Shown one piece after another: positions 4,979 to 41,696 of a stretch of 64,000 bases of DNA. Below the pieces are notes generated by a model. The model made no database searches. It was given only the letters and a program-made list of their open reading frames with translations, and had not been told where the DNA came from. The position numbers were made by a program, and so were the translations under genes. Every line of letters begins with the position of its first letter. Positions within the stretch are counted from its first letter, which is position 1. Source of the stretch: Candidatus Omnitrophota bacterium (lineage in GTDB: Bacteria > Omnitrophota > Gorgyraeia > Zapsychrales > JBAZNR01). The DNA is taken from positions 450,332 to 514,331 of the forward strand of contig JBAZNR010000001.1 in NCBI GenBank assembly GCA_041649175.1, in the 5' to 3' direction.

Positions 4979-5075
4979 GGCCCACCTCTTTCATTTTCTT
5001 TGCATTGAATATATTCCCTTTAGGGCTGGGCGCTCATTTTGTCATTTGACAAAATGAGCGCCACAAAAATAAATT

Positions 5076-8270: not shown

Positions 8271-8274
8271 CAAT

Positions 8275-8853: not shown

Positions 8854-9001
8854 CAAGAACCTTTTTAAAATAATGGTTTTAAGTTCTTTAGCAATCTTAG
8901 AATTCTTAGAATTTCCAAATAAAGAGTAACACAAGAAAACGCTTTCGTCAAGCCTGGCGAAATGCCTTTAGGAAAGATATAACTAGTTATATTACAATAA
9001 C

Positions 9002-15168: not shown

Positions 15169-16056
15169 TTATTTAGGAAATATTTCTTTGGGCTCCATAT
15201 GGGCAATGACTTCCGTAACGCCGGGAATAGCTTTCTGAATAGCATCTTCAATATCATGGCTTATTTTATGCGCATCCTCTAAGGTCATTTTAGAATTAAC
15301 GAGGACGTGCAGATCGATATAAATGTCGTCGGAGCGCCCGCGGGAACGGATGCGGTGGCACGACTCAACCCCTTTGACACTTAAAACGATCTTTTCAATA
15401 TCTTTAACATTAACGATCACCACAGTATCGCATAAAACTTCAGAGCTTTGTTTAATGATCTCATAAGCTGAATAAGCGATGAAACATGAGATGAGCAAAG
15501 TGACGATCGGGTCAATAATGGGATATCCCATTTTCATAACAATGATCGCCACAATAACAGAAAAAGACGTAAAGATATCTGCCTTGGTATGAATGGAATC
15601 GGAAACAAGAATGTCGCTTTTGAGGATTTTCCCGTGATTATATTCAAAGTTCATCACCACAAGATTCACAATGATAGTAACGAACATCACGATAAAAGCC
15701 CGGTCATCGAGCTGTGGAATAATAGGATGATAAAACCGTCCCACGGCATCTTTGATAAGGTTAAAGCAGACAAAAAGCAGTAAAACGCCTATCCCTAAAG
15801 AAAAAAGCGTTTCATATTTTTTGTGGCCGTAAGGATGGTCTTTATCCCGGGGCTGAGAAGCCACCGCAATACCGATCAGCCCCATAAGATTCGAAATTCC
15901 GTCGGAGAGAGAATGAAATCCGTCTGCCGTAATACTAGCCGAACGGCTCCAAAGGCCGTAAAAGATCTTGGCCAAGGCAACCGCCCAATTCAGCAGTAAA
16001 ACAACAATTAAAACAAATCGTATTTTAGCGTAGTGTTCGCTTGTTTTTTTACTCAT
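15169..16056 (-). CDS. Cation diffusion facilitator (CDF) family metal-efflux transporter
   Basis: Six-TM CDF core (…SITADGFHSLSDGISN…HPYGHKKYE…) with a C-terminal cytoplasmic domain. The ORF-track start at 16155 is GTG; the internal ATG at 16054-16056 (MSKKTSEHYAK) was chosen. The start is uncertain. Confidence 0.75.
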   Translation of the reverse strand: MSKKTSEHYAKIRFVLIVVLLLNWAVALAKIFYGLWSRSASITADGFHSLSDGISNLMGLIGIAVASQPRDKDHPYGHKKYETLFSLGIGVLLLFVCFNLIKDAVGRFYHPIIPQLDDRAFIVMFVTIIVNLVVMNFEYNHGKILKSDILVSDSIHTKADIFTSFSVIVAIIVMKMGYPIIDPIVTLLISCFIAYSAYEIIKQSSEVLCDTVVIVNVKDIEKIVLSVKGVESCHRIRSRGRSDDIYIDLHVLVNSKMTLEDAHKISHDIEDAIQKAIPGVTEVIAHMEPKEIFPK

Positions 16057-16230
16057 GGAAGATAAAAAGTTTGGCCCAAATTTTGCCTTACACAAAATTT
16101 GGGCTACCTCGGCAACCACAATTAAATCTCTTCGAGATTTAATTGGCCGACCCACGCCTTCGGCATGGGCGGGTTTTTTCTGCTGAAAAACCCGGGTGAG
16201 GGATATTATACTAAAGGGATAAAAAAAGTG

Positions 16231-18111
16231 TTAATGTTCTTTTGTCCGATGTTCATCTTCCTTAGAACCATCACCCGTGACCCATGTCCACTTCATTGGA
16301 TAGACATCGGGGTCAAACATCACAAAATATCCGTGCCAAATAAGGATCGCCAAGCAGGCCAAAACCGCTTCATAGTAATGAATAGCCGCGATCACATCGT
16401 AAAGCCATTTAGGGAAATAATGTAAAAACCAATTTTCCCAAAGCATCAATCCTCCGGTTAAAACCATGATCATCGAGCCCCACACTAAAGCCCAATATTC
16501 AAATTTCTCAACGTATCCGTAAAATCCAAATATAGGTCTTTCTTTGCGCCACCCAAAATAATAAGCGAACATTTGCCCGCATTGGATAAAATCTTTTTTG
16601 CGCAAAATAAGGGCATTAAGATGATGCCGTCCTTTTTGCGTGAATAAAACATACACGACATGATACAGCGATAAAACGCAAAAGATAAGCGCGGCCGCGC
16701 GATGCCCGAGGCTGCGCCAATCAACCCGCCCAACGAAAGGACTGGCCCACCAGGCTTGAGGATATTTTAAAGCAAATCCGGTATACGCTAAAGCGATGAA
16801 AGCCGTCAGCAAAATAAGATGCTGAATGCGCTCATTAGTTGACATGCGTTTGGGTTTTCCCAAAGAAGACATTCTTTGATAATGCGCCCGCAGCTTCTTT
16901 ATAAAATCGAGGCAATTGTGAAGAAATAGAAATCCGATCACGGCAATGATCAAAATAATATAAAACCGGCTGACAAAAAAACCGGCTTTGTTTTCCAAAC
17001 CTGATTTTCGGCTGGTATGGATCTTGCCCTTCGCTACTTGTTCGCTCACCCCCGCGTGGCATTTACCGCAGGTCTGCTCTAGATTCTTAGGATTGACGGA
17101 AGAATTGCTGTCGCTTACGGGCAATATATCGTGAAAACCATGGCACGACGCGCAGTTGGCGGTAATGACCGAACCCAGCTTGATGGCGAGCCCGTGGTAA
17201 CTTTGCATAAATGTATCGACGACATTATTGGGCAAACTATATTTTGTGGTGATGCGCTCAACCGCGTGGCATTGTCCGCAAGTTTCTGTAATATGCGCCG
17301 GAGCAACCTTTGAGGTGATCTTTTTGACTTCTTCAATAGAATGTTCTCCGTGACAATCGGTACACACGGGCGCTTCTCTTTTTCCTTCTCTAACAGCTTG
17401 CCCGTGAATACTGCGCATATACGTCATCTGAACGTTTTCGTGGCATTTTCCACAGGTGGTGGGGATATTTTTCCAAAATAATTTTGAATCTTCATTGGTG
17501 GCTTTACTTAATGCGTGGGAACCGTGGCAATCGGTGCACACGGCCGCCTGGATAAGATGGCTTCCCTCGACGGCCATTCCGTGAACGCTATGTTCATAGG
17601 AAGAAACCGGCTCCGCAATATTGAGGTTAAATTTCTTCATCTCTTCGGTCTTTTCATGGCAATGCGCGCAAGTTTTGGGAATATTTTCCCGGTAAACAGG
17701 AGAGACAAGATTGCGGGAATTAAGAAGTTCGTGCGGATTTCCATGACAGCTTTGACAAGTAGCCGCTTCGGTAACGCCATGGCCTAAAGCCTTGCCGTGA
17801 TCGCTATTTAAATAAAGCTCGGTTTCAATGCGATGGCAGCTTCCGCAACTGACGGGTTTTAGTTTTTCTTCGTGCGGGACTTCCACAATGTCCGAATGGC
17901 AACTGATACATAAATTTCCGCCGTGAATAGACGATTTGAATTTTTCCGGATCGACAAAAGGTGTGGCTTCGGGGTCGCTGTGGCAGGTAAAACAAGTTTC
18001 ATTATCAATAACTTCTTTTTCTTCGCCGAACGATTGCGCGGAAACGCTCAAAAAACAGCAAAGAATAAAGAAACAGATCTTAAAGTTTTTGGTCGTAAGA
18101 AAATTTTTCAT
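16231..18111 (-). CDS. CbcL-like inner-membrane quinol-oxidoreductase-type cytochrome: 11-haem c-type periplasmic domain fused to a dihaem cytochrome-b (HydC/FdnI-like) membrane domain
   Basis: A signal peptide is followed by 11 CXXCH motifs (CFTCH, CISCH, CGSCH, CQSCH, CAHCH, CTDCH, CGKCH, CTDCH, CGQCH, CASCH, CGKCH). A C-terminal ~230-aa segment has 4-5 TM helices with conserved His residues (…HRAAALIFCVLSLYHVVYV…IAAIHYYEAVLACLAILIWHGY…), as in Ni/Fe-hydrogenase/formate-dehydrogenase b-type cytochromes. Confidence 0.8.
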   Translation of the reverse strand: MKNFLTTKNFKICFFILCCFLSVSAQSFGEEKEVIDNETCFTCHSDPEATPFVDPEKFKSSIHGGNLCISCHSDIVEVPHEEKLKPVSCGSCHRIETELYLNSDHGKALGHGVTEAATCQSCHGNPHELLNSRNLVSPVYRENIPKTCAHCHEKTEEMKKFNLNIAEPVSSYEHSVHGMAVEGSHLIQAAVCTDCHGSHALSKATNEDSKLFWKNIPTTCGKCHENVQMTYMRSIHGQAVREGKREAPVCTDCHGEHSIEEVKKITSKVAPAHITETCGQCHAVERITTKYSLPNNVVDTFMQSYHGLAIKLGSVITANCASCHGFHDILPVSDSNSSVNPKNLEQTCGKCHAGVSEQVAKGKIHTSRKSGLENKAGFFVSRFYIILIIAVIGFLFLHNCLDFIKKLRAHYQRMSSLGKPKRMSTNERIQHLILLTAFIALAYTGFALKYPQAWWASPFVGRVDWRSLGHRAAALIFCVLSLYHVVYVLFTQKGRHHLNALILRKKDFIQCGQMFAYYFGWRKERPIFGFYGYVEKFEYWALVWGSMIMVLTGGLMLWENWFLHYFPKWLYDVIAAIHYYEAVLACLAILIWHGYFVMFDPDVYPMKWTWVTGDGSKEDEHRTKEH

Positions 18112-18123: not shown

Positions 18124-19623
18124 TCAGTTTCCCGTGTGGCAATCGGTGCAATTCATTTCTTTCCAGCTTTCATCTTCATTGAATGGATGGCGAAACGTTA
18201 AACCATCCGTGCTTTTTTCTATGGATGAAGCCGTGCCCTGCTCAATGATGGAGTGGCAGCTATTGCAGTTTTTGGTAATTGTTTTACCGCTTGCGGCCGC
18301 ATGTTGATCGTCGTGACAGCGAAAACATCCCGGAGAAACCAAATGCCCGATATTATCCGGATAAATATCCCATCGTGCTTTTCGTTCCGGAAAAATATTA
18401 TTTTTAAATAAAATAACGATCTCGTCGGCGGACTTTTTAATATCTTCTTGATGTGATTGATAAAATTCGGGGTGTTTATTTTGATAATATTCCAGAATCG
18501 TTTTAGGAATAGCCTGGAGCGCTTCTTGTTCGGTTTTATACGGCTTAGATAGAACTTCCATGGCTTTACTTTTGATCGATGGGATCTGTGGGTTTATTTT
18601 GCCGTCATTCATCGCCCGATTGATCAAGTCAAATGGAGGTTCAAAGCGATGCGAGGGGCGATTATGACAATCCATGCAATCCATCTTGCGCACAAGGCTT
18701 TGAGGCGGTTCTTTATCTTTATAGGGCGAATCGGGCGTTGTAAAGATCTCTTCTTTGCCGTCTTTGCCAATAGTTTTAACCCAAGAGATCACCTGGCGTT
18801 TTTGATCATCGGCCACGTAATAAACATCCTGATCAACATACATATGCGAATGAATGCCGTAATCTTTCTTTTCGTCCCGGCCGACGTGGATCAGCATACG
18901 CAAAGACCACGGGTCGGGCTGGTCGGCTTCCGTGGAACGGTATGTCCGGCGCAGTTCCACAGAACTATAGAATTTTCCCGGCCAGTGGCATTGTTCGCAT
19001 GTTTCTGCCGATGGACGCAAGTTTTGGACCGGCGTGGGAATAGGTTTGGCATAATCATTTTTTATGGTGTGATAAACTTGGCGCAAGCCGGAAAGTTTTG
19101 ATTTTACGTACCAGTTGGCGCCAGGCCCGATGTGGCATTCCACGCATTTAACGCGAGCATGCGGCGAATTAAGATAGGTAGCATATTCGGGTTTCATCAC
19201 ATCGTGACAGGTCACTCCGCAAAAATGGACCGATTCGGTATAGTGAAACGCCTTATAAGAACCGATAATGGTCATCACCATTAAAATGGATGTTCCGATC
19301 AGAAAAACAAAAATAGCATTGCGGTGAGTGGGAATAGCGGGATCAATGAAAAGCGTTTTGGGCGCGGATTCTGAAATTCCTTTTAAAATTCGCTTGTGTT
19401 TCCAGGCTGCCCCCAAAGGAATTAAGATAAGCCCTAAAATAAGAAAGGGCGGGAGAAAAACATAGGTGAGAATGCCTAAATAAAAATTAGCGCCGTTGGT
19501 AAAGAAATCAATGCCGAACAGAAGGCATTCGATAATAAATACCAGAAGCGCTAAGGCAACACCGCCGTAAGTTATGCGGTTATAAAAATAATCGGAAAAT
19601 TTATGTTTCTTTTCTGTGGGCAT
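18124..19623 (-). CDS. ImcH-like inner-membrane multihaem c-type cytochrome (3 N-terminal TM helices, NapC/NirT-like region, 7 CXXCH)
   Basis: 499 aa. Three predicted TM helices are followed by CGVTCH, CVECH, CEQCH, CMDCH, CFRCH, CNSCH and CTDCH. The architecture matches the Geobacter ImcH description. Confidence 0.75.
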   Translation of the reverse strand: MPTEKKHKFSDYFYNRITYGGVALALLVFIIECLLFGIDFFTNGANFYLGILTYVFLPPFLILGLILIPLGAAWKHKRILKGISESAPKTLFIDPAIPTHRNAIFVFLIGTSILMVMTIIGSYKAFHYTESVHFCGVTCHDVMKPEYATYLNSPHARVKCVECHIGPGANWYVKSKLSGLRQVYHTIKNDYAKPIPTPVQNLRPSAETCEQCHWPGKFYSSVELRRTYRSTEADQPDPWSLRMLIHVGRDEKKDYGIHSHMYVDQDVYYVADDQKRQVISWVKTIGKDGKEEIFTTPDSPYKDKEPPQSLVRKMDCMDCHNRPSHRFEPPFDLINRAMNDGKINPQIPSIKSKAMEVLSKPYKTEQEALQAIPKTILEYYQNKHPEFYQSHQEDIKKSADEIVILFKNNIFPERKARWDIYPDNIGHLVSPGCFRCHDDQHAAASGKTITKNCNSCHSIIEQGTASSIEKSTDGLTFRHPFNEDESWKEMNCTDCHTGN

Positions 19624-19646: not shown

Positions 19647-19705
19647 AAAAGGTGCTTTGGCGCGGCCTTATAAAGCCGCGCCAAAGCACCTTCTTTTTCT
19701 ATTTT
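19647..19705. terminator. Bidirectional rho-independent-terminator-like hairpin (19-bp perfect stem) between the beta-barrel gene and the ImcH-like gene
   Basis: The sequence aaaaggtgctttggcgcggc-cttataaa-gccgcgccaaagcacctt is followed by a T-run (ctttttctattttt) on the plus strand and by an A/T-rich tract on the minus strand. Confidence 0.45.
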
Positions 19706-19728: not shown

Positions 19729-21783
19729 TTACCACGTAAACTTTGTATCCAACCAAACAACATGGGCGCTGTAGTTTCCGTAGCCGTCCGTTGCAAAAAG
19801 ATCACCCGGATTTGCCTTATAGGAATAGTATCCGTAATGAGGTTCCAGCGTAAGATCTTTTTTAGGAGACCACCTTGCTCCTAACGTAATATCGTACGCT
19901 TCGCTATTGACCCCATACGGCATACCAACCCACCCATGAGAATCGAAATCGTTAGTTGTCGAATATTGAGCGCTGCTATAAAAACTCAAATTTTCTTTAG
20001 GCGCGTAACTGGTTGATAAAAGCAACGTATAGACATCGGCAACATAAACAGGAACTCCTCCGCCGCTTACGGCCGTTTGCGATGCCGGCGTTGAGACTTT
20101 GAACTGATTTAACGACGCCCCAACATTAAACATCCACTCATCCAAAGGCTGCACAGAAATATCGTAAGTATACACCCTTGAATTGGCATTGCTTTTGATC
20201 CAATCTCTTTGCGGCGTTACAACAGGAGTCGATTGAACTTGGTAAACCGTATCAGCTAACTGCACGCGGAAAGAATTCTGAAACCATTTGGTCGGCTTCC
20301 AAACAAGCCGATTGTTCCACTCATCTGATTTGGTCCGAATCCTTGAAATACTCACCGCATTGTCATTATTTTGATATATGTCGTAGGTGTTGCGGTCCGA
20401 CTTGAGTCTAACATTCGAAGTCATATTGACCTTATTATTAAAAACATAACGAATGCCCATGACCCCTGTCGATTCAGGATTAGTATCTAAATACTCCGTA
20501 TAGCTCGTTCCCAGAGCAGCTTTTGAATTCCAGCTTCGCGTCTGTTGAAAATCCCAATCCGTATAAAGACTGGTTTTAGACCAACCAGTATAATTCAAAG
20601 AGAGTGATTCGCCGGTGCGGGTTATCTGATTTTCGGTAACATCCGCCTTATTGGAACCACTTAAAAACCCTTGCCTAAAACCAAAACCGGTTGAAGCAAT
20701 AATTTCTTGTTTCAATTTTGTACTGAAGTTTAGATCCGGTGTCAAATTCGTGGCAAAATGCTCAACCCAAGAATGTGAATCGCGGCTAGCCCATCCATCC
20801 ACAACACCATTATGACTGCTTCCCGTAGGAAGGCCTGTTGTTGAATCAAAGGCTAAGATCGTTTCCAGCATGTCGCTCTTTGAATTCTGGAATTGATAGC
20901 CAAAAGAAACATATGTTTTGTCATTCATCATCCAGCGATCTGCCCTCAGCGATGAAACTAATTGCTTGGATCTGGGTTCTTGTGTGGTGCGAACATATTC
21001 CGTGCTGTCATTATCTTCCCTCATCGTGCGTCCTGAATAAAACTCAGCTTTTTGCTTGCCCTTAACGTTAAATCCGGCAACATTCACATTTCCTTTGATC
21101 TCGATAGCATCGATGGCCGTTGAGACGTCTTGCCAGGCAGGGTTTATTTTACGAGTAACTCCTTCAACAACATCGCCCCACGTTAGCCTGCTTTTTGTTC
21201 CTTCTTTGGTATCACGCCGATAGCTTAAGGCTATCCCGGGTTCGCTTTCAACATTGCTTCCTGCTTCAAAAAAGAAATGCCCTATATCCAATGCCGGATC
21301 GAGGGGTAATTTAGAAATAGACTGTCCTCCGAAATTGGTATAAAAACCTCCATAAACATCATACCATTTGCGAAAATTCCCATAATCCAACGTCACGTAG
21401 TTGCCGTTACCCTTAACAAGATTAAGATTAGCGTCAAAATCATTGTCACCAGAAATGACGTGTCCCTGAAAAGACAAGTGGTCACCATTACCCAGATCAC
21501 CCTCAAAGGTCATATCTTTAATTCCGGTGGCTGTCCCGTCATTCATCCAATTTAAAGCACGGAATTTCGCCGCATCTCCTTTGACGCTGACATAACGAAG
21601 AGGCATAAATTCAAAATTGTCCAATTTAAACTTTTGAGTAAAATCGCTGATGTCCTGATTGAACAACTTTTTTAAGGTTTCCGTTAATGTGCCGGCAAAA
21701 ACATTTGTTTGGCCCAAGCCAAAAACCAGCATAAAGATCGTCAGCAGGACCGGGCTGAAATCCTTTAAAATATGTTTTTTCAT
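19729..21783 (-). CDS. Large outer-membrane beta-barrel protein, MtrB/PioB/MtoB-like porin partner of the upstream multihaem cytochrome
   Basis: The ORF track gives 19729..21828 with a TTG start. The likely start is the ATG at 21781-21783 (MKKHILKDFSPVLLTIFMLVFGLGQTNVFAG, a signal peptide) with SD AAGGAGGTG. The mature protein is ~660 aa, Cys-free, and has a pervasive amphipathic beta-strand pattern. It ends in the C-terminal aromatic 'TKFTW'. Its position is immediately downstream of an MtrA-family cytochrome. Confidence 0.7.
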   Translation of the reverse strand: MKKHILKDFSPVLLTIFMLVFGLGQTNVFAGTLTETLKKLFNQDISDFTQKFKLDNFEFMPLRYVSVKGDAAKFRALNWMNDGTATGIKDMTFEGDLGNGDHLSFQGHVISGDNDFDANLNLVKGNGNYVTLDYGNFRKWYDVYGGFYTNFGGQSISKLPLDPALDIGHFFFEAGSNVESEPGIALSYRRDTKEGTKSRLTWGDVVEGVTRKINPAWQDVSTAIDAIEIKGNVNVAGFNVKGKQKAEFYSGRTMREDNDSTEYVRTTQEPRSKQLVSSLRADRWMMNDKTYVSFGYQFQNSKSDMLETILAFDSTTGLPTGSSHNGVVDGWASRDSHSWVEHFATNLTPDLNFSTKLKQEIIASTGFGFRQGFLSGSNKADVTENQITRTGESLSLNYTGWSKTSLYTDWDFQQTRSWNSKAALGTSYTEYLDTNPESTGVMGIRYVFNNKVNMTSNVRLKSDRNTYDIYQNNDNAVSISRIRTKSDEWNNRLVWKPTKWFQNSFRVQLADTVYQVQSTPVVTPQRDWIKSNANSRVYTYDISVQPLDEWMFNVGASLNQFKVSTPASQTAVSGGGVPVYVADVYTLLLSTSYAPKENLSFYSSAQYSTTNDFDSHGWVGMPYGVNSEAYDITLGARWSPKKDLTLEPHYGYYSYKANPGDLFATDGYGNYSAHVVWLDTKFTW

Positions 21784-21805
21784 TGAGTTCACCTCCTTTA
21801 TTTTT

Positions 21806-22567
21806 TTATTCACGTAAATGCCGATCAAAATATGACCCGTGTGGTGCTGTATGACATCCGGCGCTCCAACATGATCCTTGAAGATTGCGTGTATTATGAT
21901 TACTGTTTCCTATTCTAGGAAAGTTTGCTTGGACGTGACAACGCAAACACAAATTGTTATCTCTGGCAACCAACATTTTATCCGTAATAGACCCATGAAC
22001 CTTATGACAGCTCGTGCATCCATCGCGTAAGGCCTGATGCTCCCACGGAAACGGTCCTTGCTGGTCTTTATGGCATTTAAAACAAGTTTCATTGACATCT
22101 TCCATGCTGGTCGCTGTCCATGGCCGGCTGTCACTGCCATGCGCATTATGGCAATCAGAACAGCTCATTTTTCCTTCCAGGACAGGATGACGATAAGGAA
22201 GTTTGAATTCCATCTTTTTTTCCGTATGACAGGTAAAACAGGCTTCCGGATTTTTGTCGGGATTAACCATCGTTCCTCTGCCGCCGCCGTTTTCAACGTG
22301 AATACTGCCCGGGCCATGGCACATTTCGCACCCTTGGGCCTCGATCTCATCTCCTTTTACTTCTATCCTGGAATGAGTTGAAAGTTGATACTCTCGATTT
22401 TCTTTTTCATGGCACGAGGCGCACGTTTCGCTGCCAACGTAGGTAGCGCCTTTCATGCTGGGAAGAATATTGTTCATCTCCTGTGCCGCTTCAACCCTTA
22501 ATCCAAAAAATAATAGCGACAAAACACCAAGAATCTGGCAAATCCTTAAAAGCCATTTTCCGGCCAT
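21806..22567 (-). CDS. Periplasmic multihaem c-type cytochrome of the MtrA/MtoA/PioA/DmsE family (7 CXXCH + 1 CX4CH)
   Basis: The start is the ATG at 22565-22567 (signal peptide MAGKWLLRICQILGVLSLLFFGLRVEAAQE) with SD AAGGAGGG. The ORF-track N-extension overlaps the upstream gene. The motifs SCSDCHNAHGS, ETCFKCHKDQQGPFPWEHQ, GCTSCHKVHGS, LCLRCHVQ and SCWSAGCHTAPHGS align with conserved MtrA blocks (TCSDCHNPHGS, DTCYSCHAEKRGPKLWEHA, NCVTCHNPHGS, LCQQCHAS, SCLNCHSQVHGS). Confidence 0.8.
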   Translation of the reverse strand: MAGKWLLRICQILGVLSLLFFGLRVEAAQEMNNILPSMKGATYVGSETCASCHEKENREYQLSTHSRIEVKGDEIEAQGCEMCHGPGSIHVENGGGRGTMVNPDKNPEACFTCHTEKKMEFKLPYRHPVLEGKMSCSDCHNAHGSDSRPWTATSMEDVNETCFKCHKDQQGPFPWEHQALRDGCTSCHKVHGSITDKMLVARDNNLCLRCHVQANFPRIGNSNHNTRNLQGSCWSAGCHTAPHGSYFDRHLRE

Positions 22568-22624
22568 AAGACAACCCTCCTTTTTTCGTAAATCTGAAAT
22601 TTGATTTATGATAACTGTTGTCAT

Positions 22625-22897
22625 TTATTGGGTCGCCTCCGGGGCCTTGCCAACTTTTTGATATGTTTCAGCCGTCGGTTGCGGATTTTCTTTAATAACC
22701 TTTTGGCCATATTCGCTCAACTCATGCATGCCGTCATCTTTTTTTGGCATTTTATCGGTATGGCAGGCAATGCATTTAGGTGATTCTCCGGGAAAAGCCT
22801 CTTTATATACTTTGATCTCTTTCATATCAGCTTGCGCCGCAACAGCCCATCCTAGAATAATAACAGCGGTTAAAAGAAATAAGTGTTGATGTTTCAT
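22625..22897 (-). CDS. Small periplasmic monohaem cytochrome c (MtoD-like position)
   Basis: 90 aa. A signal peptide (…GWAVAAQA) is followed by a single CIACH. SD GGGAGGAAGG is present. It lies immediately upstream of the MtrA-like gene, with only a 1-nt gap. Confidence 0.75.
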   Translation of the reverse strand: MKHQHLFLLTAVIILGWAVAAQADMKEIKVYKEAFPGESPKCIACHTDKMPKKDDGMHELSEYGQKVIKENPQPTAETYQKVGKAPEATQ

Positions 22898-22929: not shown

Positions 22930-24522
22930 TTATGATGTTTTTAAACTTTTCCTTATGCCGACAAAGGCAAAAAAAGCCGCCTCAAAAATAAGATAATAAA
23001 CGATCCAAGCGCTTTGACCCGCGCCAAAACCATAGCTATGCAGGCCCTTTCCTAAAATAAAATTCACACCGTACCATGTCATAAGAACTAAAAGAAATCC
23101 CAAAATAGCGCCGACAGCCAAGGCCTTATTGCTTAATTTTCCGGCGTGACGAAAATGAACAATGACCATATATCCTAAAAAGGTAATGAGCGCCCAGGTT
23201 TCTTTAGGATCCCATCCCCAAAACCGCCCCCAGGATTCATTAGCCCAAACGCCGCCTAAGATCGTTCCGATCCCAAGAGCGATCAACCCTGCCTGCAGTA
23301 AACGATTAATCATATGCGCCGAAACGGCTTCGCTATTTTCGGAAAACTTTCCTAAAGCGTTTAAGAAAAGATGCCGGTGGCCTAAGGCCATGGCGAGCCC
23401 AAAAATACCATAACTGGAAACGATCGTTAACACATGAATGGCCAGCCAATAATTGCTTTTGAGAACCGGGACTAAAACATCCAAAGATTTTTCTACCGGG
23501 AGAAGGTCGGCAAAGATCATGACCAAAGCCCCGGTTAAAGCCGCCACCGATAAAACGAAATATTGCTTTTTAGATAAAAAGAAAATAAAGGCACCGGCCA
23601 CTAAGATCCAATTCATAAAAATGATCGACTCATACATGTTGGACACCGGTGGACGCCCTAAAATAATAACCCTCAGCAAAAGCCCCGCTGAATGAAATAA
23701 AAATCCAGCTAAAACCAGCGTAACGCCTGTCATGCGCAATAAAGATTTCGAACTGAAAAAAGATACAAAAATAAAAGCGATCAGATATAAAACCCATGCC
23801 CACAAAAAAGGTTTGAGCTGATAATAAATATTTTCCAGGTAGACATAAGGCGCGAATACTTCCGGCGAATGCCGTTCAATATCTCTGCTCCACTGCCCGG
23901 CGAGCCCAACAAAATCTAAAGATCCCTTGGAATATAAAAGTGTCAGGACCCTGAAATTTTCTGCCAGTAATCCGGACGTCTTATAAGGAGATTCCCATTC
24001 TAAAGTGGCCGTGGGAATGGTTTTAATATATTCTTGCGCAGCCAGATCATCGACGGTTAAAAGGCGCGTATAAAGCAATTCGGCCGCTTGCTCCGTAGAC
24101 GTAAGCGTTAATTCGCGTTGGCGTTTGTCTTTCGCGCTTTGGATCAGCGTCAATAATAGAGGAACACAGCTTTTAAGCTCTCGATAGGAGAAATATTTCT
24201 TATCCGCGGAAAGGTCGACGGCTTTTTTTAATTCCAGATGATCGACGCGGATAAATGGAATTTCCAGAAACTTCTTCGGATCATGAAGATTTTTAAAAAT
24301 AACCGAAACAGCCGGCTCTTGACCCCAGGTTTCTTTCCCGGAAATAAGCCGCAAGGTTTCCCGGGAAAAAACATCGAATGATTTAATGCGCCCGTTATGC
24401 TGAATGGGAATTTTCCCGGCGGCGCGAGGCATTACATCGGTTGCGCCACAAGAACAAAGCGAAAAACATATTGTTCCCAGGGCCATCAAACATAAAGCAC
24501 TTTTTTTGATTCTCGTTACCAT
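22930..24522 (-). CDS. ccsA: Cytochrome c biogenesis protein CcsA/ResC (system II haem-handling, WWD domain) with N-terminal periplasmic extension
   Basis: 530 aa. The tryptophan-rich WWD motif 'WGRFWGWDPKETWALITFLGY' is present, with conserved His residues in flanking TM helices. Confidence 0.85.
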   Translation of the reverse strand: MVTRIKKSALCLMALGTICFSLCSCGATDVMPRAAGKIPIQHNGRIKSFDVFSRETLRLISGKETWGQEPAVSVIFKNLHDPKKFLEIPFIRVDHLELKKAVDLSADKKYFSYRELKSCVPLLLTLIQSAKDKRQRELTLTSTEQAAELLYTRLLTVDDLAAQEYIKTIPTATLEWESPYKTSGLLAENFRVLTLLYSKGSLDFVGLAGQWSRDIERHSPEVFAPYVYLENIYYQLKPFLWAWVLYLIAFIFVSFFSSKSLLRMTGVTLVLAGFLFHSAGLLLRVIILGRPPVSNMYESIIFMNWILVAGAFIFFLSKKQYFVLSVAALTGALVMIFADLLPVEKSLDVLVPVLKSNYWLAIHVLTIVSSYGIFGLAMALGHRHLFLNALGKFSENSEAVSAHMINRLLQAGLIALGIGTILGGVWANESWGRFWGWDPKETWALITFLGYMVIVHFRHAGKLSNKALAVGAILGFLLVLMTWYGVNFILGKGLHSYGFGAGQSAWIVYYLIFEAAFFAFVGIRKSLKTS

Positions 24523-24533: not shown

Positions 24534-26246
24534 TTACGCGTTTTCCGGCCTTCGTGAAAACGGCTTAACATAAAATTGTAGAAAAGCTCCGGCAAAAATA
24601 ATGATCGAACTAGTATAGATAAGGCTAATGCCGGGATTTTTGGCAATGGTAAAAACAGATCCTTCTTTTTCATTAGGGTTTTGCATGAACGAAGATTGAA
24701 AGATGCGAAATCCCCGGTAATCAAACGGTTGATTCATGGCGATCGTCTTCTCCAGGCGAATATTTTCCTGTTGGTCTTCCACGGTCACATCACTTTCAAA
24801 CGATGCCGGACGGTTCGTTCCGGGATAATCTACTTTTCGAAAATCTTTAAGCGTCAAAGAGAAGGGCACTTGTTTTTGCGCCGGAATAATAGATACGAAA
24901 AGATCGTTCTGTCCGACAGAGATCTTTTTTTCTTCCCCTTCTAATACCCATATTGGAGAATTCCCGTTTTGATGATTGATGACGACCTTGGCGGCCAATG
25001 CGCCCTCACCGGGAACATCCACGGCGGTTATCTCATGGGAAACCAAGGCATGCGTATATAATTTTTCAACCCGCGCTAACATATCTGCCCACCCTAATTC
25101 GATAGTTTCCCCGGAATGAACAGCTCCTTTTTTTATGATCTCCTGCGCGGACATAGATTGGTATTGAAATTTTCCATCGGGATCAATGAAAAAATTTAAA
25201 GAAGGCCCGCCATAGGATTGCTCTTCCTTAGCGCCGGGAACATCAAGATCGATGACAATATCAAATTCATTTTGAGATGTTTGATGATGCATCGATTCAA
25301 AATCAGGAAACAAGGCAAATCGAATGTAATGACGTGCTCGCCCTTGGCCGTCTACCGCGTCAAATTCAACCGCCGGATTAAGAGAACCGCTTTGAGGCGC
25401 ATTGACCAGCTTGTGTTCGGAAACTCTGGCATACGGATAATACTGAAGCCCTTTGATGGTCAATCCTTTTTGCTTCAACGGAATTTCTTTAGGCGCCGGC
25501 TGATTAAGATCAAGGACCGTTAATATTTCCCCGGATTTTTCCGCGATCGTTAATGTCGGGCTTTGCGTGGAAATTTTTTCTTCTTTTTTTCCTAAAGAAA
25601 CCTTTAAAGGCCCAAAAAACTGCACGGCAGAAGACAAATGCCCTTGATCGCCTTCGATAAGCCAAAACGCCTGATCAACTCCCATCGACGGGCTTTTTAA
25701 GGTGACCTGTAAGGCATTTTGAGCCGGATTTTGAACGGTTCCTTCTCGGACGATCAGTTGGGGCGCGGCATGTTCGATAATATCTTTCACGATCATCGTT
25801 TCGTTCTTTTCAGCACCGTTTAAAATATGTTCACCCTTGCGTAGATCAAAAACATGTTCAGCCTTGCCGGGCACAACCACACTAAGACTGTATCCGCCGA
25901 GCCTTATTGTATTGGCTGTTTCTCCTTCTCGTAAAGCCATCTGGCCTTCAACGGCCAACAAACGCGTCAACAAAGACCCTAAAAGCAATCCTAAAATACC
26001 AATATGAGTAATGAGAAATCCTGTGTGATACTTTTTAAAAGGAATTCTCAAGATCGTTGAACAAAAGATATTGATCCAAAGCAAAGATAAAAGTGCGTCA
26101 AACCATTTCGTTTGATAAAAAGTTTTCTGAGCGAACGGTGTTCCGTGCATCGATTCCATAACGGTTGCCACGATCAAAAGCGCCATTAAGCTCGCACAAA
26201 TAAAAGCCGTAAAAGAAAGGGATCCTAATTTTTTAACGAGCCACAT
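24534..26246 (-). CDS. ccsB: Cytochrome c biogenesis protein ResB/CcsB/Ccs1 (system II)
   Basis: The N-terminus has TM helices and a conserved His (…VMESMHGTPFAQKTFY…), followed by a large periplasmic domain and a C-terminal TM. The likely start is the ATG at 26244-26246 (MWLVKKLG…) with a GGAG SD. The ORF-track extension to 26288 overlaps hemA. Confidence 0.85.
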   Translation of the reverse strand: MWLVKKLGSLSFTAFICASLMALLIVATVMESMHGTPFAQKTFYQTKWFDALLSLLWINIFCSTILRIPFKKYHTGFLITHIGILGLLLGSLLTRLLAVEGQMALREGETANTIRLGGYSLSVVVPGKAEHVFDLRKGEHILNGAEKNETMIVKDIIEHAAPQLIVREGTVQNPAQNALQVTLKSPSMGVDQAFWLIEGDQGHLSSAVQFFGPLKVSLGKKEEKISTQSPTLTIAEKSGEILTVLDLNQPAPKEIPLKQKGLTIKGLQYYPYARVSEHKLVNAPQSGSLNPAVEFDAVDGQGRARHYIRFALFPDFESMHHQTSQNEFDIVIDLDVPGAKEEQSYGGPSLNFFIDPDGKFQYQSMSAQEIIKKGAVHSGETIELGWADMLARVEKLYTHALVSHEITAVDVPGEGALAAKVVINHQNGNSPIWVLEGEEKKISVGQNDLFVSIIPAQKQVPFSLTLKDFRKVDYPGTNRPASFESDVTVEDQQENIRLEKTIAMNQPFDYRGFRIFQSSFMQNPNEKEGSVFTIAKNPGISLIYTSSIIIFAGAFLQFYVKPFSRRPENA

Positions 26247-27297
26247 AGGATTTCTCCGATGGATTAAGCTTTGATGCTTCTGCGACACGAATTTTTTCTA
26301 TTTTGGCGTAAAATTCATCAATTTTTTTAGCGATGATCTTTTCAACCTCTTCAACCGCCAAGCGGCGGCGGGCAATATTATGCTCCACGGCTTTATCGAG
26401 ATCGTCGACGGATAACAAAGAAACATTTTCTATAAAAGCAATATCAGGATGAATATTGCGCGGCATAGAGATATCGATCAAAACTAACTTTTGTTTCGCG
26501 CGTGCCGGCATAATTTGATCGATCAGGTCTTTTTCTAAAAGATACTGCGGAGCGCTGGCCGAACAAATGCAGACATCAACTTTGGCCAGGATATTTTTAA
26601 GCTCAAGGAAGGAAACCGCTTCGGCGCCAAATTCATTGGCCACGGCGCAGGAATTTTCATGTGTACGGCTCATGACATAAATCTTACTGGCGCCTTTTTC
26701 TTTTAGATGGCTCACCGCCAAATGCCCCATTTTCCCGGCGCCGATGATCAAAACAGATTTATCCTGAAGGGTCCCCAATAAATGTTGCGCCATCGTGACC
26801 GCCGCCCAGCTGACCGATGACCCACCGCAACCGATGGCCGTTTCACTCTGAGCTTTTTTCCCGGCGCGAATAACGATCTGGGACAGAACATTGAATTCTT
26901 TTTGCAGCATTGCTTTGGCGCGGGACAATTCTACCGCTTCTTTGATTTGCCCTAACACTTGTTTTTCTCCTAAGATCAGAGAATCAGCTCCCGTTGAAAC
27001 GCGTAAAAAATGCTCCAGCGCTTCTTTGCCCTGATAGGAATAAAAATATTTCTGAACATCCGTCCCCATAGAGATCTTTTTGATACGGCAAAGATGGTCG
27101 AGCAAAATACCAACATTCTCGTCGATAAGATGAGCGCAGATTTCCGTGCGGTTGCAGGTCGAAAGAACAATGGCTTCTATAATACGAGGATCGTTTTTAA
27201 ATTCATTAAGCAAAAGCGTGCGTTCATTTAAATTGAGATGGAACTTTTCCCGTATCTCGATAGGTGCTGTCTTATGATTAATTCCGCAAAGGATCAT
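26233..27297 (-). CDS. hemA: Glutamyl-tRNA reductase
   Basis: The likely start is the ATG at 27295-27297 (MILCGINHKTAPIEIREKF…), aligning with the canonical HemA N-terminus. The catalytic 'LSTCNRTE' and the NADP-binding 'LIIGAGKMG' are present. The ORF-track N-extension (to 27462) is non-homologous. Confidence 0.85.
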   Translation of the reverse strand: MILCGINHKTAPIEIREKFHLNLNERTLLLNEFKNDPRIIEAIVLSTCNRTEICAHLIDENVGILLDHLCRIKKISMGTDVQKYFYSYQGKEALEHFLRVSTGADSLILGEKQVLGQIKEAVELSRAKAMLQKEFNVLSQIVIRAGKKAQSETAIGCGGSSVSWAAVTMAQHLLGTLQDKSVLIIGAGKMGHLAVSHLKEKGASKIYVMSRTHENSCAVANEFGAEAVSFLELKNILAKVDVCICSASAPQYLLEKDLIDQIMPARAKQKLVLIDISMPRNIHPDIAFIENVSLLSVDDLDKAVEHNIARRRLAVEEVEKIIAKKIDEFYAKIEKIRVAEASKLNPSEKSYVAR

Positions 27298-27889
27298 GTT
27301 TCTTGCAAACCTTTTTAATTTCCCGAAGGATAAAATTTTTCTCAACCAAATGCAGATCTTCGTCGGCTGCTTTGTGGATTTGTTCGCTTTCCGCGCGCAC
27401 GTGATGGCGCAAAAGGCACATAAGATACGTCCCTTTTTCTTTGAGCTGTTCGATGATCTCAAAACGCCTGTTTTCCGTTTTGGCGTTTTTTAACTGCTCA
27501 AATAGCACAATAAATGATCTTAAATTAGATTTAAACTCTCGGTGGTCGATCTTGAAAATCTTAATGGCCGGGCTAAGCCGCGGAATATGGGTGGCGACGA
27601 ACGGAAAAAGGATGCGCTCATCGAGATCCATGTGCGGCAACAATGTTTTTTGGAAGAATTTTAAAATTTCCGCTATGCTTTTGATGTTGCGCCCTAAAGA
27701 AACTTTGCCTTCATAACGTAAATTGACCAAAAACTGCAGAAGTTGTTGGGATTTTTTTAAGACCTCTTTATGACAATGTTCTAAAGATGTGGTCACGCCT
27801 ACGCGATTTTTATGCACCATAAAAAAGCCGCTCCTATTTTTCGTAACATTATAAGAGACAGTGTGTTTTGTGTCTGTGATATCCATCAC
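27278..27889 (-). CDS. Hemerythrin-like (HHE cation-binding) domain protein (tentative)
   Basis: 203 aa with several His/Glu-containing helical segments (…LEHCHKEV…HMDLDERILFP…HREF…RHHVRAESEQIH…) consistent with a hemerythrin-like fold. The assignment is weak and the start is uncertain. It overlaps the hemA start by 20 nt. Confidence 0.4.
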   Translation of the reverse strand: MMDITDTKHTVSYNVTKNRSGFFMVHKNRVGVTTSLEHCHKEVLKKSQQLLQFLVNLRYEGKVSLGRNIKSIAEILKFFQKTLLPHMDLDERILFPFVATHIPRLSPAIKIFKIDHREFKSNLRSFIVLFEQLKNAKTENRRFEIIEQLKEKGTYLMCLLRHHVRAESEQIHKAADEDLHLVEKNFILREIKKVCKKHDPLRN

Positions 27890-27920: not shown

Positions 27921-28619
27921 TTAAGAAAGGTGTTTTTCCAGGCCGTTTTTGTTAAGAATAACGATCTGCTTTGGTTTGATCTCGATCAATTTCTTGCGTT
28001 TAAATTCATGCAGGTGGCGGGCGACTGTTTCGCGGCTTGAGCCGATACGATGGGCTATTTCTTCCCGGGTAAAGGGAAGAGAGACAAGGTTTTCTTGAGT
28101 ACGTAAAGCGACATTATTACCGTGTAGGTCCAAAAGGAATTTCGCCAGCCTTTTTTTGGTATCGTCCAATGATACTTTTTCGATCAAAGAACTGAATTTC
28201 GATAGGCGTTCGGCAAAGATCCGGTTTAGAGTATGCGTGAGCTGCGAGCTGACCTTAACTAAGCGAACATAATCTTCCCGGGATAAAAACCATACCTGAC
28301 ACGTCGTTAGGGCTTCGGCGGAAGAGGAACAGCACCACTGCGTCGCCCCGGGATTACAAGCACACGTATCTCCGCCTTCCAAAACCTCCAGGATCTGTTC
28401 CCGGCCGGATGATGCCGTACGAAAAACCTTAACCCTGCCGGAGCGAATAACAAAGACACGCTCACAAGGCTTGCTGTCATAAAACAAGAGCTCGCCTTTT
28501 TCATATATCTTTTCTTTGATGCAGGATCGTAAAAGTTTAAGCTCTTTAGAAGAAAGGCCCCGGAAAAGGCCGATATCTTTTAAGGCAGGAGAGAAAGATT
28601 TCTTATCGTGGTTTGACAT
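27921..28619 (-). CDS. Crp/Fnr-family transcriptional regulator (cNMP-binding domain + C-terminal HTH)
   Basis: 232 aa. A beta-roll effector domain is followed by the HTH 'REEIAHRIGSSRETVARHLHEFKRK'. An unusual Cys cluster 'GDTCACNPGATQWCC' lies in the effector domain. Confidence 0.85.
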   Translation of the reverse strand: MSNHDKKSFSPALKDIGLFRGLSSKELKLLRSCIKEKIYEKGELLFYDSKPCERVFVIRSGRVKVFRTASSGREQILEVLEGGDTCACNPGATQWCCSSSAEALTTCQVWFLSREDYVRLVKVSSQLTHTLNRIFAERLSKFSSLIEKVSLDDTKKRLAKFLLDLHGNNVALRTQENLVSLPFTREEIAHRIGSSRETVARHLHEFKRKKLIEIKPKQIVILNKNGLEKHLS

Positions 28620-28985: not shown

Positions 28986-30539
28986 ATGAAAGACGATAAG
29001 ATCATCCGTAGCGGCGTTATCGACATCGGAACCCATTCCATCAAGCTTTTGATCGCCGAAGGAAATAACGGCGATATTAAGATCCTGGAATCCTTAAAGA
29101 ACGTGGCCGCCTTAGGCCGGGATACGTTCTTGAAAGAACGATTCTCCCAGGAAAGCATCAACCGCACCATTGCGATCTTGGATAAATACGCCAATACCCT
29201 TAAAGAATACGACATTACCAATCCACGGGTCATTGCCACCACCGCTGTCCGCGAAGCGAGGAATAAAGATGTCTTTATAGACGCCGTTCAGCGTAAAACC
29301 GGATTTAACGTTGAGGTTTTAACCGTCGGAGACGTCGTTTATTATATCGACGCTTATATCTATCATCGGCTCAAAGATAAATACCCTCTTCACGAAAAAA
29401 ATCTCCTGATCGCCGAACCGGGCGCGGGAAGTTTTGACATCTCCCTTATGGCGCAAGGATTTACTTTGATGAACGCGGGGCTTCCCTTAGGGACCATGCG
29501 CTTAAAGCAATTGATCAATAAACTTGACGGCAGTTTCCAGGAAAATTATGAAGCCTTAAAAGAAAGCGTAGAGAACGAACTGGCGTATTTGCGCCGCAGT
29601 ATGCCGCCTTTGGCCATTGACGATATTATTCTCATTGATGAAAATTATTCACCTTACCTAGATAAGATCCTCGCTAACAAAGGCCTCGGTGAAAGCTTCT
29701 TCCAGCTCAGTCAAGATGACACCAAACAACTTTTAAGCCATTTAATGGACAAAAAAGTTGACGAGATCGTCAGCGACTACAAAGTTCCGCTCGAAACGGC
29801 CGAATCGTTTATGGAATACGCCATTATCCTTAACGCCGTTGTCGAATTGGCTCAAAACAAAAATATCTATATTCTTAAAACATCTTTGGCCGAAGCTATC
29901 TTAGCCAATGAAATATTAGGGTATGACATTTCCCAGAAATACAATAAGGGAAATCAGCTTATTTCTATGGCGCACGCCCTTTGCCGTAAATATAACGTCG
30001 ATCTTAATCATGCTCATCAGGTTGCGCGGTTATCCGATAAATTATTTGACGCCTTTAAAGACCTTCTGGGGCTTAAAAAAACAGAATCTTTGTATTTAAC
30101 TTTGGCGTCCTATTTACATGATATCGGCATGTTCATTTATAACCGCGCGCATCATAAACATTCCGAATATATTATTAACTCCTTGAATTTCTTCCGCCTG
30201 ACAGAAGAAGAAATAAAGATCATCGCCTGCGTGGCGCGTTATCACCGTCGGGGAAATCCGTCAGACACACATCTTCTTTACCAATCGCTCCCCAGAAAAG
30301 AACAGATCTTGGTCCAAAAACTAAGCTCTCTTTTAAAAGTCGCCAACTCTTTAGACCGTTCTCATAAACAAAAAGCAAAAGACATTGAGATAAAACTTAA
30401 CCGCCTGCAGGATATCTCTTTGATCGTTACCGTTGACGGCAGTTTTATTTTAGAAAAAGCGGAATTCGCGGAGAAAAAAGAGTTTTTAGAAGAAGCCTGC
30501 GGCAATAAGATCAGTTTAAAGATCAAATCAGCCTCCTAA
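28986..30539 (+). CDS. ppx: Exopolyphosphatase / guanosine pentaphosphate phosphohydrolase (Ppx/GppA) with C-terminal HD domain
   Basis: 517 aa. The N-terminus is an ASKHA fold (GVIDIGTHSIKLLIAE…), and the C-terminus is an HD domain (…YLHDIGMFIYNRAHHKHSEYII…). Confidence 0.9.
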   Translation: MKDDKIIRSGVIDIGTHSIKLLIAEGNNGDIKILESLKNVAALGRDTFLKERFSQESINRTIAILDKYANTLKEYDITNPRVIATTAVREARNKDVFIDAVQRKTGFNVEVLTVGDVVYYIDAYIYHRLKDKYPLHEKNLLIAEPGAGSFDISLMAQGFTLMNAGLPLGTMRLKQLINKLDGSFQENYEALKESVENELAYLRRSMPPLAIDDIILIDENYSPYLDKILANKGLGESFFQLSQDDTKQLLSHLMDKKVDEIVSDYKVPLETAESFMEYAIILNAVVELAQNKNIYILKTSLAEAILANEILGYDISQKYNKGNQLISMAHALCRKYNVDLNHAHQVARLSDKLFDAFKDLLGLKKTESLYLTLASYLHDIGMFIYNRAHHKHSEYIINSLNFFRLTEEEIKIIACVARYHRRGNPSDTHLLYQSLPRKEQILVQKLSSLLKVANSLDRSHKQKAKDIEIKLNRLQDISLIVTVDGSFILEKAEFAEKKEFLEEACGNKISLKIKSAS

Positions 30540-30542
30540 TTT

Positions 30543-37603: not shown

Positions 37604-37629
37604 GATGTTTTTTCGTCCTTTTTAAAAAA

Positions 37630-40442
<2,813 letters not shown>

Positions 40443-40445
40443 TAG

Positions 40446-41534: not shown

Positions 41535-41608
41535 GAGAACCTTTCTAACTAGTTAACATTTCGGAACGATTAAATATCTATTAAAACAGTATCAGTTGTA
41601 ATAGTGTT

Positions 41609-41617
41609 TGTGGATAA
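41609..41617. promoter_or_regulatory. Perfect DnaA box (TGTGGATAA = TTATCCACA on the opposite strand) in the dnaA-dnaN intergenic region
   Basis: An exact 9-mer consensus lies within the 162-bp A/T-rich dnaA-dnaN spacer. Confidence 0.55.
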
Positions 41618-41696
41618 GTTGAATAAGAATAAAACCATATTAATTACAATAAGTTATGTAAAAAAAGCCTGTTAATATCACTTGAATAAAAAACAA

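Follow-up and report, generated by a model that had tools for sequence, protein, structure and literature searches.

Among the described systems closest to the locus presented here are the porin-cytochrome conduits of the Mtr type, in which the cytochromes MtrA, MtoA and PioA all carry ten haems and for which no atypical haem-binding motif is known (Shi et al. 2014, PMC4245776). The ten haems of MtrA span 80 Å, compared with approximately 40 Å for the membrane, with haem 1 protruding approximately 20 Å into the periplasm, and it has been shown that MtrAB is able to reduce soluble Fe(III) chelates without MtrC (PMC7198977). In addition, a 'novel porin-multihaem cytochrome' comprising a porin of at least 20 strands and a periplasmic cytochrome with eight conserved haem sites has been predicted in Verrucomicrobia (He et al. 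2017, PMC5615132), and Mtr-like, sequence-divergent gene clusters for extracellular electron transfer (EET) have been reported in peat Acidobacteriota and Verrucomicrobiota (preprint 10.64898/2026.05.27.727921); these two papers do not cover Omnitrophota. The present analysis concerns a stretch of 64 kb (contig JBAZNR010000001.1; hereafter the window) from a metagenome-assembled genome (MAG) of Candidatus Omnitrophota, and in particular three co-directional open reading frames (ORFs) on its minus strand (19729-22897) that encode a monohaem cytochrome, a multihaem cytochrome and an outer-membrane barrel, a trio which a first-pass annotation had likened to MtoD, MtoA and MtoB. The locus is best explained as an MtrAB-type porin-cytochrome conduit that lacks a surface cytochrome and probably exports electrons, a reading to which we give somewhat better than even credence. 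That the cytochrome and the barrel together make up a conduit across the outer membrane appears quite likely, given the homology of the cytochrome, the fold and size of the barrel and the conserved adjacency of the two genes.

An eight-haem cytochrome related to MtrA

The multihaem cytochrome gene (21806-22567, minus strand) encodes a protein of 253 amino acids (aa) with a type I signal peptide. Its start is placed at ATG 22567, 57 nt after the stop codon of the monohaem gene, because a Shine-Dalgarno sequence (aaggagg) precedes that codon and because both the NCBI gene model (253 aa, P0001, 100% identical) and the N-termini of homologues agree with it; the spacing of 1 nt between these genes given by the first-pass annotation holds only for the longest ORF, which would begin at ATG 22624. 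The motif counts of that annotation were recovered, with seven CXXCH (CASCH, CEMCH, CFTCH, CSDCH, CFKCH, CTSCH and CLRCH) and a terminal CWSAGCH (CX4CH) at residue 233 in this protein, and likewise for the other two members of the trio as given below.

When compared by phmmer with all PDB chains, the protein found the MtrA chain of the Mtr complex (6r2q_A) as its best match (E 1.7e-29), the alignment including the blocks CSDCHNaHGS, netC[fy]xCH..GP..WEH and CxxCH[kn][vp]HGS, which bears out the block-by-block resemblance to MtrA noticed earlier. A profile of 29 homologues scored 149.5 bits against MtrA (E 1.2e-42), with the next PDB match at 38.5 bits and NrfB at 34.7 bits. In NCBIfam the two best models were both decahaem families, namely NF041028 (the GSU2203 family, 174.1 bits) and TIGR03508 (DmsE/MtrA, 164.2 bits), with NrfB models at 38 bits or less. 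As had been anticipated, the protein groups with cytochromes of the MtrA/DmsE type and not with those of the NrfB/NapB type; yet both decahaem scores lie under the curated cut-offs, and in place of the ten CXXCH expected of the MtrA/DmsE family it contains seven together with one CX4CH. Because MtrA outscores NrfB by so much while these cut-offs are missed, its sequence points to a true but shortened relative of MtrA, not an NrfB/NapB-type protein, that stands outside the curated decahaem families.

It had been suggested that the two haems missing relative to MtrA might be lost from the N-terminus, or hidden there by a mis-set start codon. HMMER alignments span all ten MtrA motifs and pair query haems 1-2 with MtrA haems 1-2 and, in the high-scoring segment, query haems 3-8 with MtrA haems 5-10; a weaker alternative alignment pairs query haems 3-4 with MtrA haems 3-4, because MtrA is internally duplicated. 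Since the first two haems keep their MtrA counterparts and the last six pair with MtrA haems 5-10, the missing sites are, as judged by alignment, internal (MtrA haems 3-4 or 4-5), lying where the two pentahaem halves meet and not at the N-terminus. A mis-set start concealing two haems is also ruled out by the 19 in-frame residues upstream, which hold no CXXCH.

The CX4CH aligns with MtrA haem 10. It had been asked whether CWSAGCH could reflect a sequencing error; this, like a frameshift, is excluded by its conservation: the motif (C[FW]S[AG]GCH) is kept in 119 of 120 homologues, 114 of them with seven CXXCH and five with eight CXXCH alongside the single CX4CH, and two Omnitrophota relatives (in loci L008 and L011) have a CXXCH (CW-GCH or CW-SCH) at the same column. 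Moreover, the alignment contains eight invariant His outside the motifs (H65, H90, H127, H143, H177, H191, H243 and H250) for eight haem sites, a number that fits eight bis-His haems, the ligation being deduced. Conservation, the CXXCH counterpart and the eight extra His together argue that CX4CH is a genuine haem site. As the described members of the MtrA-type family always have ten haems and no atypical motif (PMC4245776), the cytochrome is best seen as a real variant of that family, and more than 1,200 database proteins belong to its own family at E <= 1e-5.

A Cys-free barrel with the predicted fold of MtrB

The barrel gene (19729-21783, minus strand) starts at ATG 21783 (MKKHIL), 22 nt after the cytochrome stop, and not at TTG 21828. 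It encodes a precursor of 684 aa, approximately 654 aa when mature, which is the MtrB size class, in agreement with the first-pass annotation, and its C-terminus (...KFTW) ends in an aromatic residue, as is typical of outer-membrane barrels. The protein contains no Cys. The absence of the N-terminal CXXC of MtrB, on which the earlier note had remarked, is real but unremarkable; to our knowledge, it marks only the MtrB of metal-reducing Gammaproteobacteria. Searches of Pfam, NCBIfam and PDB with the single protein sequence gave no match to the barrel; in particular, and unlike MtrB, it does not match PF11854 (MtrB_PioB; gathering threshold 23 bits) at E <= 0.01.

An AlphaFold2 model built on a 34-sequence alignment (mean predicted local distance difference test score, pLDDT, 81.4; predicted template modelling score, pTM, 0.71) forms 26 strands from residue 52 to residue 682, without a plug or additional domain; this count lies within the 26-28 strands first proposed and not among the 12-18 of a channel too narrow for a cytochrome. 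In a Foldseek search of this model against PDB, MtrB (6r2q_B) came first (E 5.3e-13; template modelling scores 0.59/0.62), with runners-up at E 5e-9 or weaker and template modelling scores of at most 0.47. In MtrB, the loop joining strands 1 and 2 is reported to contain a small capping helix, and the strands near the N-terminus to be shorter (PMC7198977). The model of the window barrel shows similar features: residues 71-78 form a helix (pLDDT approximately 85-90) between strand 1 (52-69) and strand 2 (83-98), and strands 2-5 measure 9-16 residues, with later strands of 15-24. This helix overlaps the most conserved motif of the barrel family, GDAAKFRA.NW. On the strength of the model, and of the PF11854 matches of distant relatives given below, the barrel is probably a remote homologue of MtrB, formally as a structural match only. 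The membership of the MtrA and MtrB families first assigned to the two proteins holds for the homology of the cytochrome and the fold of the barrel and fails at the curated thresholds.

An exhaustive profile search of 1.84 billion representatives returned 780 clusters of the barrel family at E <= 1e-3 (298 at E <= 1e-30), with relatives in Verrucomicrobiota, Acidobacteriota and Methylomirabilota, and all matches in a scan of genome contigs with a profile of the barrel came from Omnitrophota MAGs, some of which are labelled 'uncultured Planctomycetales'. Among 63 distant family members, nine matched PF11854 at E <= 1, with a best value of E 4.3e-6; most if not all of these matches are weak, the three whose scores were printed lying at 12-17 bits, under the 23-bit threshold, and PF11854 outscores every other barrel family among the 63. 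One or two monohaem PSCyt1 domains are fused to the N-terminus in 26 of these 63 barrels (for example L016 6001-8565, P0236, P0251 and P0255), and the source-named relatives of one such fused barrel are mostly Verrucomicrobiota (Pedosphaera, Limisphaerales). The PSCyt1-fused barrels of the 26-strand type resemble a giant Cyc2-like architecture. No multihaem cytochrome lies beside one Verrucomicrobial member, a Roseibacillus barrel of 914 aa with two PSCyt1 domains (L014 1869-4613).

The monohaem protein

The small periplasmic c-type cytochrome at the head of the trio (22625-22897, minus strand) measures 90 aa as a precursor and includes a signal peptide and one CIACH; the 11 aligned members of its family share invariant C42, C45, H46 and H58 within the pattern YKEAFP..KPKCxxCH...PKKDDGxHE.N.YG. 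No match in Pfam, NCBIfam or PDB was obtained with single sequences or with a profile of the 11 homologues; Pfam scans across the 11 members gave nothing consistent, and the profile search of PDB returned neither MtoD nor a class I cytochrome c, its best cytochrome match (E 0.69) covering only the signal peptide and CXXCH. The likeness to MtoD proposed by the first-pass annotation survives as one of position and of size and function, since a small secreted monohaem cytochrome is indeed encoded beside MtoA-like and MtoB-like genes; as far as these searches indicate, it is not a likeness by homology. When the monohaem family was compared by hhalign with the PSCyt1 domains of the fused barrels, only a short match of 19 columns (P-x4-C-x2-CH-x4-PK) was found, with a probability of 74%.

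Inner-membrane cytochromes downstream of the barrel

Two genes for putative inner-membrane cytochromes follow the barrel gene on the minus strand. The first (18124-19623) encodes a seven-haem protein of 499 aa with hydrophobic segments at residues 16-45, 45-75 and 101-124, a CGVTCH (CX3CH) at residue 135 beside the third segment, six CXXCH, and PF03264 (the NapC/NirT-like region) at 101-191. ImcH has been described as a protein of approximately 500 aa with three N-terminal transmembrane helices, a CX3CH by the third, six CXXCH and a NapC/NirT-like region (PMC6295460), and, judged by that description, the window protein bears the ImcH signature. The second (16231-18111) encodes a protein of 626 aa with 11 CXXCH in residues 40-352, PF01292 at 423-600, transmembrane segments between residues 374 and 601, and a match to NCBIfam TIGR01583 (formate dehydrogenase gamma), its C-terminal part being a di-haem cytochrome b of the HydC/FdnI type. 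By the same published description it has the architecture of CbcL, MtrH and MtoC, although with 11 CXXCH compared with nine in CbcL. The two proteins thus resemble, by description, the ImcH and CbcL of Geobacter. According to the same source, ImcH homologues are known only in Fe(III) reducers and have been implicated only in quinol oxidation, homologues of ImcH and CbcL had previously been counted in Omnitrophica, and no mtrAB or mtoAB genes have been reported next to imcH (PMC6295460), whereas here an MtrAB-like pair lies directly upstream of the ImcH-like gene.

The gap of 105 nt between the barrel and ImcH-like genes contains a GC-rich hairpin (19649-19692), a perfect 18-bp palindrome with arms AAGGTGCTTTGGCGCGGC…GCCGCGCCAAAGCACCTT, which is by far the strongest hairpin within 13-29.5 kb. 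Its U-tract on the minus strand is weak (TTTTAAAG). The element may be a partial terminator or an mRNA-stabilising stem, and could partly uncouple transcription of the two genes.

Conservation of the gene order

The cytochrome and barrel genes were followed into 11 loci retrieved through the barrel (L003-L013, all from Omnitrophota MAGs) and four independent look-ups anchored on the cytochrome (L001/L002, L019, L020 and L021). In the 11 barrel-anchored loci an eight-haem cytochrome precedes the barrel wherever the contig reaches, and the two genes are also adjacent in L001, in L019-L021 and in the further loci L016, L017 and L018; in the cytochrome-anchored loci the next gene encodes a barrel of approximately 700 aa that is 31-34% identical to that of the window. 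An ImcH-like gene lies directly 3' of the barrel gene in L003, L004, L006, L007, L009, L010 and L019-L021, and elsewhere in the locus in L005, L008 and L013, with none seen in L011; in L019-L021 it is the next cytochrome gene after the barrel, and its product is 45-59% identical to the ImcH-like protein of the window. In L001 a NapC/NirT-type cytochrome is found beyond an intervening Rieske/cytochrome b set.

The combination extends beyond Omnitrophota. In the Acidobacteriota locus L017 and in L016, the barrel of which carries PSCyt1, cytochromes with seven CXXCH and a CW[SN]AGCH, 48-51% identical to the window protein, are encoded directly upstream of the barrel. Both of these cytochromes (L016 5203-6000, L017 5147-5968) have a lipobox (LLVSC) and may be membrane-anchored, unlike the protein of the window with its type I signal peptide.

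Several loci depart from the common arrangement. Downstream of the barrel in L001 (13028-18209), L005 (10148-13348) and L013 (9975-15006), the CbcL-like fusion is replaced by a set comprising a 9-haem cytochrome, a Rieske protein, a cytochrome b and a 4-5-haem cytochrome, which amounts to a bc-type complex, with the ImcH-like gene further on. In a locus labelled Omnitrophica (L018 6001-9708) the order is reversed, the barrel coming first; this barrel measures 905 aa and has an N-terminal extension of approximately 250 aa that is of low complexity and rich in Ser, Lys and Glu, and its partner is an 11-haem version of the cytochrome (325 aa) with two CX4CH.

The surrounding genes and the wider window

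The trio and the two inner-membrane cytochromes belong to a co-directional minus-strand array of approximately 12 kb in which genes for haem synthesis and maturation are followed by those for the periplasmic and outer-membrane parts and then by those for the two putative quinol oxidases. At its upstream end, Pfam identifies a Crp/Fnr-family regulator (27921-28619) and a hemerythrin-domain protein (27278-27889), a pair that may possibly act as redox- or O2-responsive regulators of the cluster. These are followed by HemA, the glutamyl-tRNA reductase of the first step of haem synthesis (26233-27297; PF05201 and PF01488; likely start MILCGINHKT, the longest ORF beginning at 27462), and by two components of System II cytochrome c maturation, namely ResB/CcsB (24534-26246; PF05140; likely start MWLVKKLG from homologue N-termini, the longest ORF beginning at 26288) and the haem-handling subunit CcsA/ResC (22930-24522; PF01578 and TIGR03144). 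HemA, with or without ResB-CcsA, is usually found upstream of the module, immediately so in nearly all related loci, and CcsA is syntenic in L001, L008, L011 and L020. Locus L020 also has the hemerythrin and Crp pair (46% and 28% identity) upstream of a HemA-ResB-CcsA-monohaem-cytochrome-barrel series.

At the other end of the array, directly 3' of the CbcL-like gene, the minus strand encodes a CDF-family cation-efflux protein (15169-16155), and in L021 (2932-5280) the FeoAB genes for ferrous-iron uptake stand just upstream of the module; together these may hint at iron handling around the conduit. The window contains only four c-type cytochromes, namely the monohaem, eight-haem, ImcH-like and CbcL-like proteins, and an MtrC/OmcA-like extracellular partner was found neither in its 64 kb nor in the flanks of the related loci examined.

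Elsewhere in the window, a set of polyphosphate genes (28986-34053) is divergent from the Crp gene and encodes Ppx/GppA, polyphosphate kinase 1, a CHAD-domain protein and an HD/Ppx domain III protein. In the region of the replication origin (35150-47507), the minus strand carries dnaA (41697-43037), dnaN, gyrB and gyrA, and the plus strand yidC and a gene for a ParA-family ATPase (45821-46663); the interval 40-46 kb is AT-rich (GC 0.36-0.37), the cumulative GC skew reaches its minimum near 42 kb, and the electron-transfer cluster lies approximately 20 kb from the origin, co-oriented with replication. Within 3815-8934, a 1065-aa histidine kinase with many PAS domains is encoded between a hybrid response-regulator/ATPase and a helix-turn-helix response regulator, and an adhesin-like protein of 548 aa with YadA-head repeats at 55775-57421.

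Relation to described conduits

Compared with the MtrAB of Shewanella (6R2Q), the window has a homologous periplasmic cytochrome in which MtrA motifs 5-10 are colinear and the local blocks are kept, and its gene stands immediately upstream of that of a barrel with 26 predicted strands and no plug, for which MtrB is the nearest structural match. The differences lie in the number of haems (eight compared with ten), in a last site that is CX4CH and not CXXCH, and in a barrel that has neither the PF11854 match nor the N-terminal CXXC of MtrB. The absence of a surface cytochrome is shared with MtoAB and PioAB. The order of monohaem cytochrome, multihaem cytochrome, barrel and NapC/NirT-type membrane cytochrome is that of mtoD-mtoA-mtoB-cymA, although the monohaem protein shows no sequence relationship to MtoD and the place of CymA is taken by an ImcH-like and CbcL-like quinol module.

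There is also a correspondence with the porin-multihaem cytochrome of He et al. (2017), in that the window pair, with 26 predicted strands and eight haem sites, agrees by description with its definition. Given the Verrucomicrobiota-labelled relatives of the barrel and the identity of the L016 and L017 cytochromes, the pair very probably belongs to the broad family of porin-cytochrome clusters of Verrucomicrobia and Acidobacteriota. Within this family, the Verrucomicrobiota barrels usually carry fused PSCyt1, whereas the window has a separate and apparently unrelated small monohaem gene, and the Omnitrophota version is set within a full pathway cluster comprising haem synthesis, maturation and the ImcH-like and CbcL-like proteins. 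An N-terminal fused monohaem domain is also a feature of Cyc2, as of many distant members of the barrel family; Cyc2, however, has approximately 16-17 strands and acts alone, whereas the barrel encoded here is 26-stranded, lacks a fused haem domain and has the eight-haem cytochrome as its partner. Thus, the type of conduit is known, and the Omnitrophota member, of which no description was found in the searched literature, is an addition to a bioinformatically predicted and experimentally uncharacterised branch. It differs from canonical MtrAB in combining eight haems, one site being the conserved CX4CH, with a barrel that Pfam does not recognise, a monohaem partner that has its own gene and lacks detectable relatives, and direct linkage to ImcH-like and CbcL-like genes.

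Proposed electron path and alternative readings

In the reading that we favour, the ImcH-like and CbcL-like cytochromes of the inner membrane would draw electrons from the menaquinol pool, and these would cross the periplasm most likely via the small monohaem cytochrome as hand-off partner. In the outer membrane, the 26-strand barrel, having no plug, would sheathe the 253-aa cytochrome, whose eight bis-His haems, with the CX4CH site in place of MtrA haem 10, would form a chain of approximately 60 Å. Scaled from MtrA, such a chain would still cross a membrane of approximately 40 Å with little reach into the periplasm, which would give a role to a docking or diffusible monohaem cytochrome and, in the Verrucomicrobial relatives, to the fused monohaem domain. 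Electrons would exit at the exposed last haem towards soluble or colloidal acceptors, such as chelated Fe(III) or humic quinones, or towards a partner surface, while HemA and the System II genes would supply and attach the haem. Outward flow to acceptors of this kind is favoured on account of the ImcH-like and CbcL-like signatures downstream, and we consider it a little likelier to be correct than to be wrong.

A number of points weigh against this proposal. The conduit is known here from genes and from a barrel model, the insertion of the cytochrome into the barrel is drawn from analogy, and the part played by the monohaem protein and the way in which electrons flow are both inferred. The cytochrome misses the curated decahaem cut-offs of 192.2 bits (TIGR03508) and 325 bits (NF041028), and an AlphaFold2 model of its apo form, based on a 29-sequence alignment, reached a pLDDT of only 40, as is to be expected of an apo multihaem protein, and was not used. 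Neither the 34-sequence nor a 111-sequence profile of the barrel found MtrB in PDB, and its 26-strand form may be a product of convergence. The monohaem gene, which occurs once or twice per locus in 8 of the 11 loci retrieved through the barrel, and also in L019-L021, is absent from the relatives L001, L005 and L013, and is thus not obligatory. As for direction, two-component conduits without a surface cytochrome, such as MtoAB and PioAB, are typical of Fe(II) oxidisers, and proteins of the CbcL/MtoC type work in both directions.

These last points lead to a lesser but serious possibility, namely that the same conduit runs inward in the manner of MtoAB and PioAB, with electrons drawn from extracellular Fe(II), from a mineral, from a cathode-like surface or from a partner cell and passed via the monohaem protein to the inner-membrane cytochromes, which would act as quinone reductases. 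The lack of an MtrC-like surface cytochrome in the window and related loci, as in MtoAB/PioAB clusters (PMC4245776), is consistent with such a route, as are the order of monohaem, decahaem-like, barrel and NapC/NirT-type genes, which mirrors mtoD-mtoA-mtoB-cymA (PMC10654088), the occurrence of CbcL/MtoC-family proteins in Fe(II) oxidisers (PMC6295460), and the Rieske/cytochrome b complex beside the pair in L001, L005 and L013. On the other hand, the ImcH-like gene is the most constant neighbour, and the restriction of ImcH homologues to Fe(III) reducers and to quinol oxidation (PMC6295460) argues for outward flow, as does the absence of terminal oxidase and carbon-fixation genes from the 64-kb window; Mtr-type conduits are intrinsically reversible, so that genomic evidence is weak either way.

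It is improbable that there is no conduit at all, with the cytochrome acting as a periplasmic carrier of the NrfB or cytochrome c3 type for a reductase and the barrel as an unrelated solute or secretion channel. The NCBI annotations of the public proteins that are 100% identical to the two, 'cytochrome c3 family protein' and 'hypothetical protein', would suit such a division, as would the missing sequence match of the barrel to MtrB/PioB and the Roseibacillus relative (L014) that has no multihaem cytochrome beside it; yet the adjacency of cytochrome and barrel is kept across Omnitrophota, Acidobacteriota and Verrucomicrobiota-type contigs, the closest solved relative of the cytochrome is MtrA, at more than 110 bits above NrfB, the cluster contains no periplasmic reductase gene, and the c-type cytochrome domain fused to 26 of 63 barrel relatives ties the barrel family to electron transfer. 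Very improbable indeed is an assignment to the Pcc type of Geobacter (OmaB/OmbB/OmcB) in place of the Mtr type. OmaB and OmaC are eight-haem periplasmic cytochromes (PMC4245776) and the ImcH-like and CbcL-like partners in the inner membrane are those of Geobacter (PMC6295460), but the porins of Pcc, which are far smaller than MtrB, are predicted to have 18-22 strands, compared with 26 here, and Pcc and Mtr proteins have been reported as unrelated (PMC4245776), whereas the window cytochrome is clearly a homologue of MtrA. In addition, no OmcB-like outer cytochrome is present in the window, and no Oma-type family is found among the NCBIfam matches of the cytochrome, OmaB having been compared by description only. 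The PCC3 and PCC4 systems of Fe(II) oxidisers (PMC5566968) were also considered and rejected, their architecture being different, with cytochromes of 21 haems and larger and a five-helix inner-membrane protein.

Implications

The preferred reading, an outward conduit of the MtrAB type, has consequences for both the protein families and the organism. MtrA-type wires are not fixed at ten CXXCH haems; rather, a large family uses eight, with a conserved CX4CH at the outward end. The barrel family, with 780 representative clusters and no Pfam model, is overlooked by current annotation pipelines, and surveys of EET based on hidden Markov models probably overlook it too and may hence under-count such conduits. 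A bolder and, in our opinion, unlikely extension is that of a lineage spanning Omnitrophota, Verrucomicrobiota and Acidobacteriota, in which the wire has become too short to extend into the periplasm and a dedicated monohaem adapter docks at the periplasmic mouth, free-standing in Omnitrophota and fused to the barrel as PSCyt1 in Verrucomicrobiota, and which could wire ultra-small, host-associated Omnitrophota to a partner; if this were true, the conduit in such cells would link them electrically to a partner organism and not to minerals. For the Omnitrophota, a widespread uncultured phylum, the cluster provides a concrete and compact candidate pathway for EET, and one that is small enough for heterologous expression.

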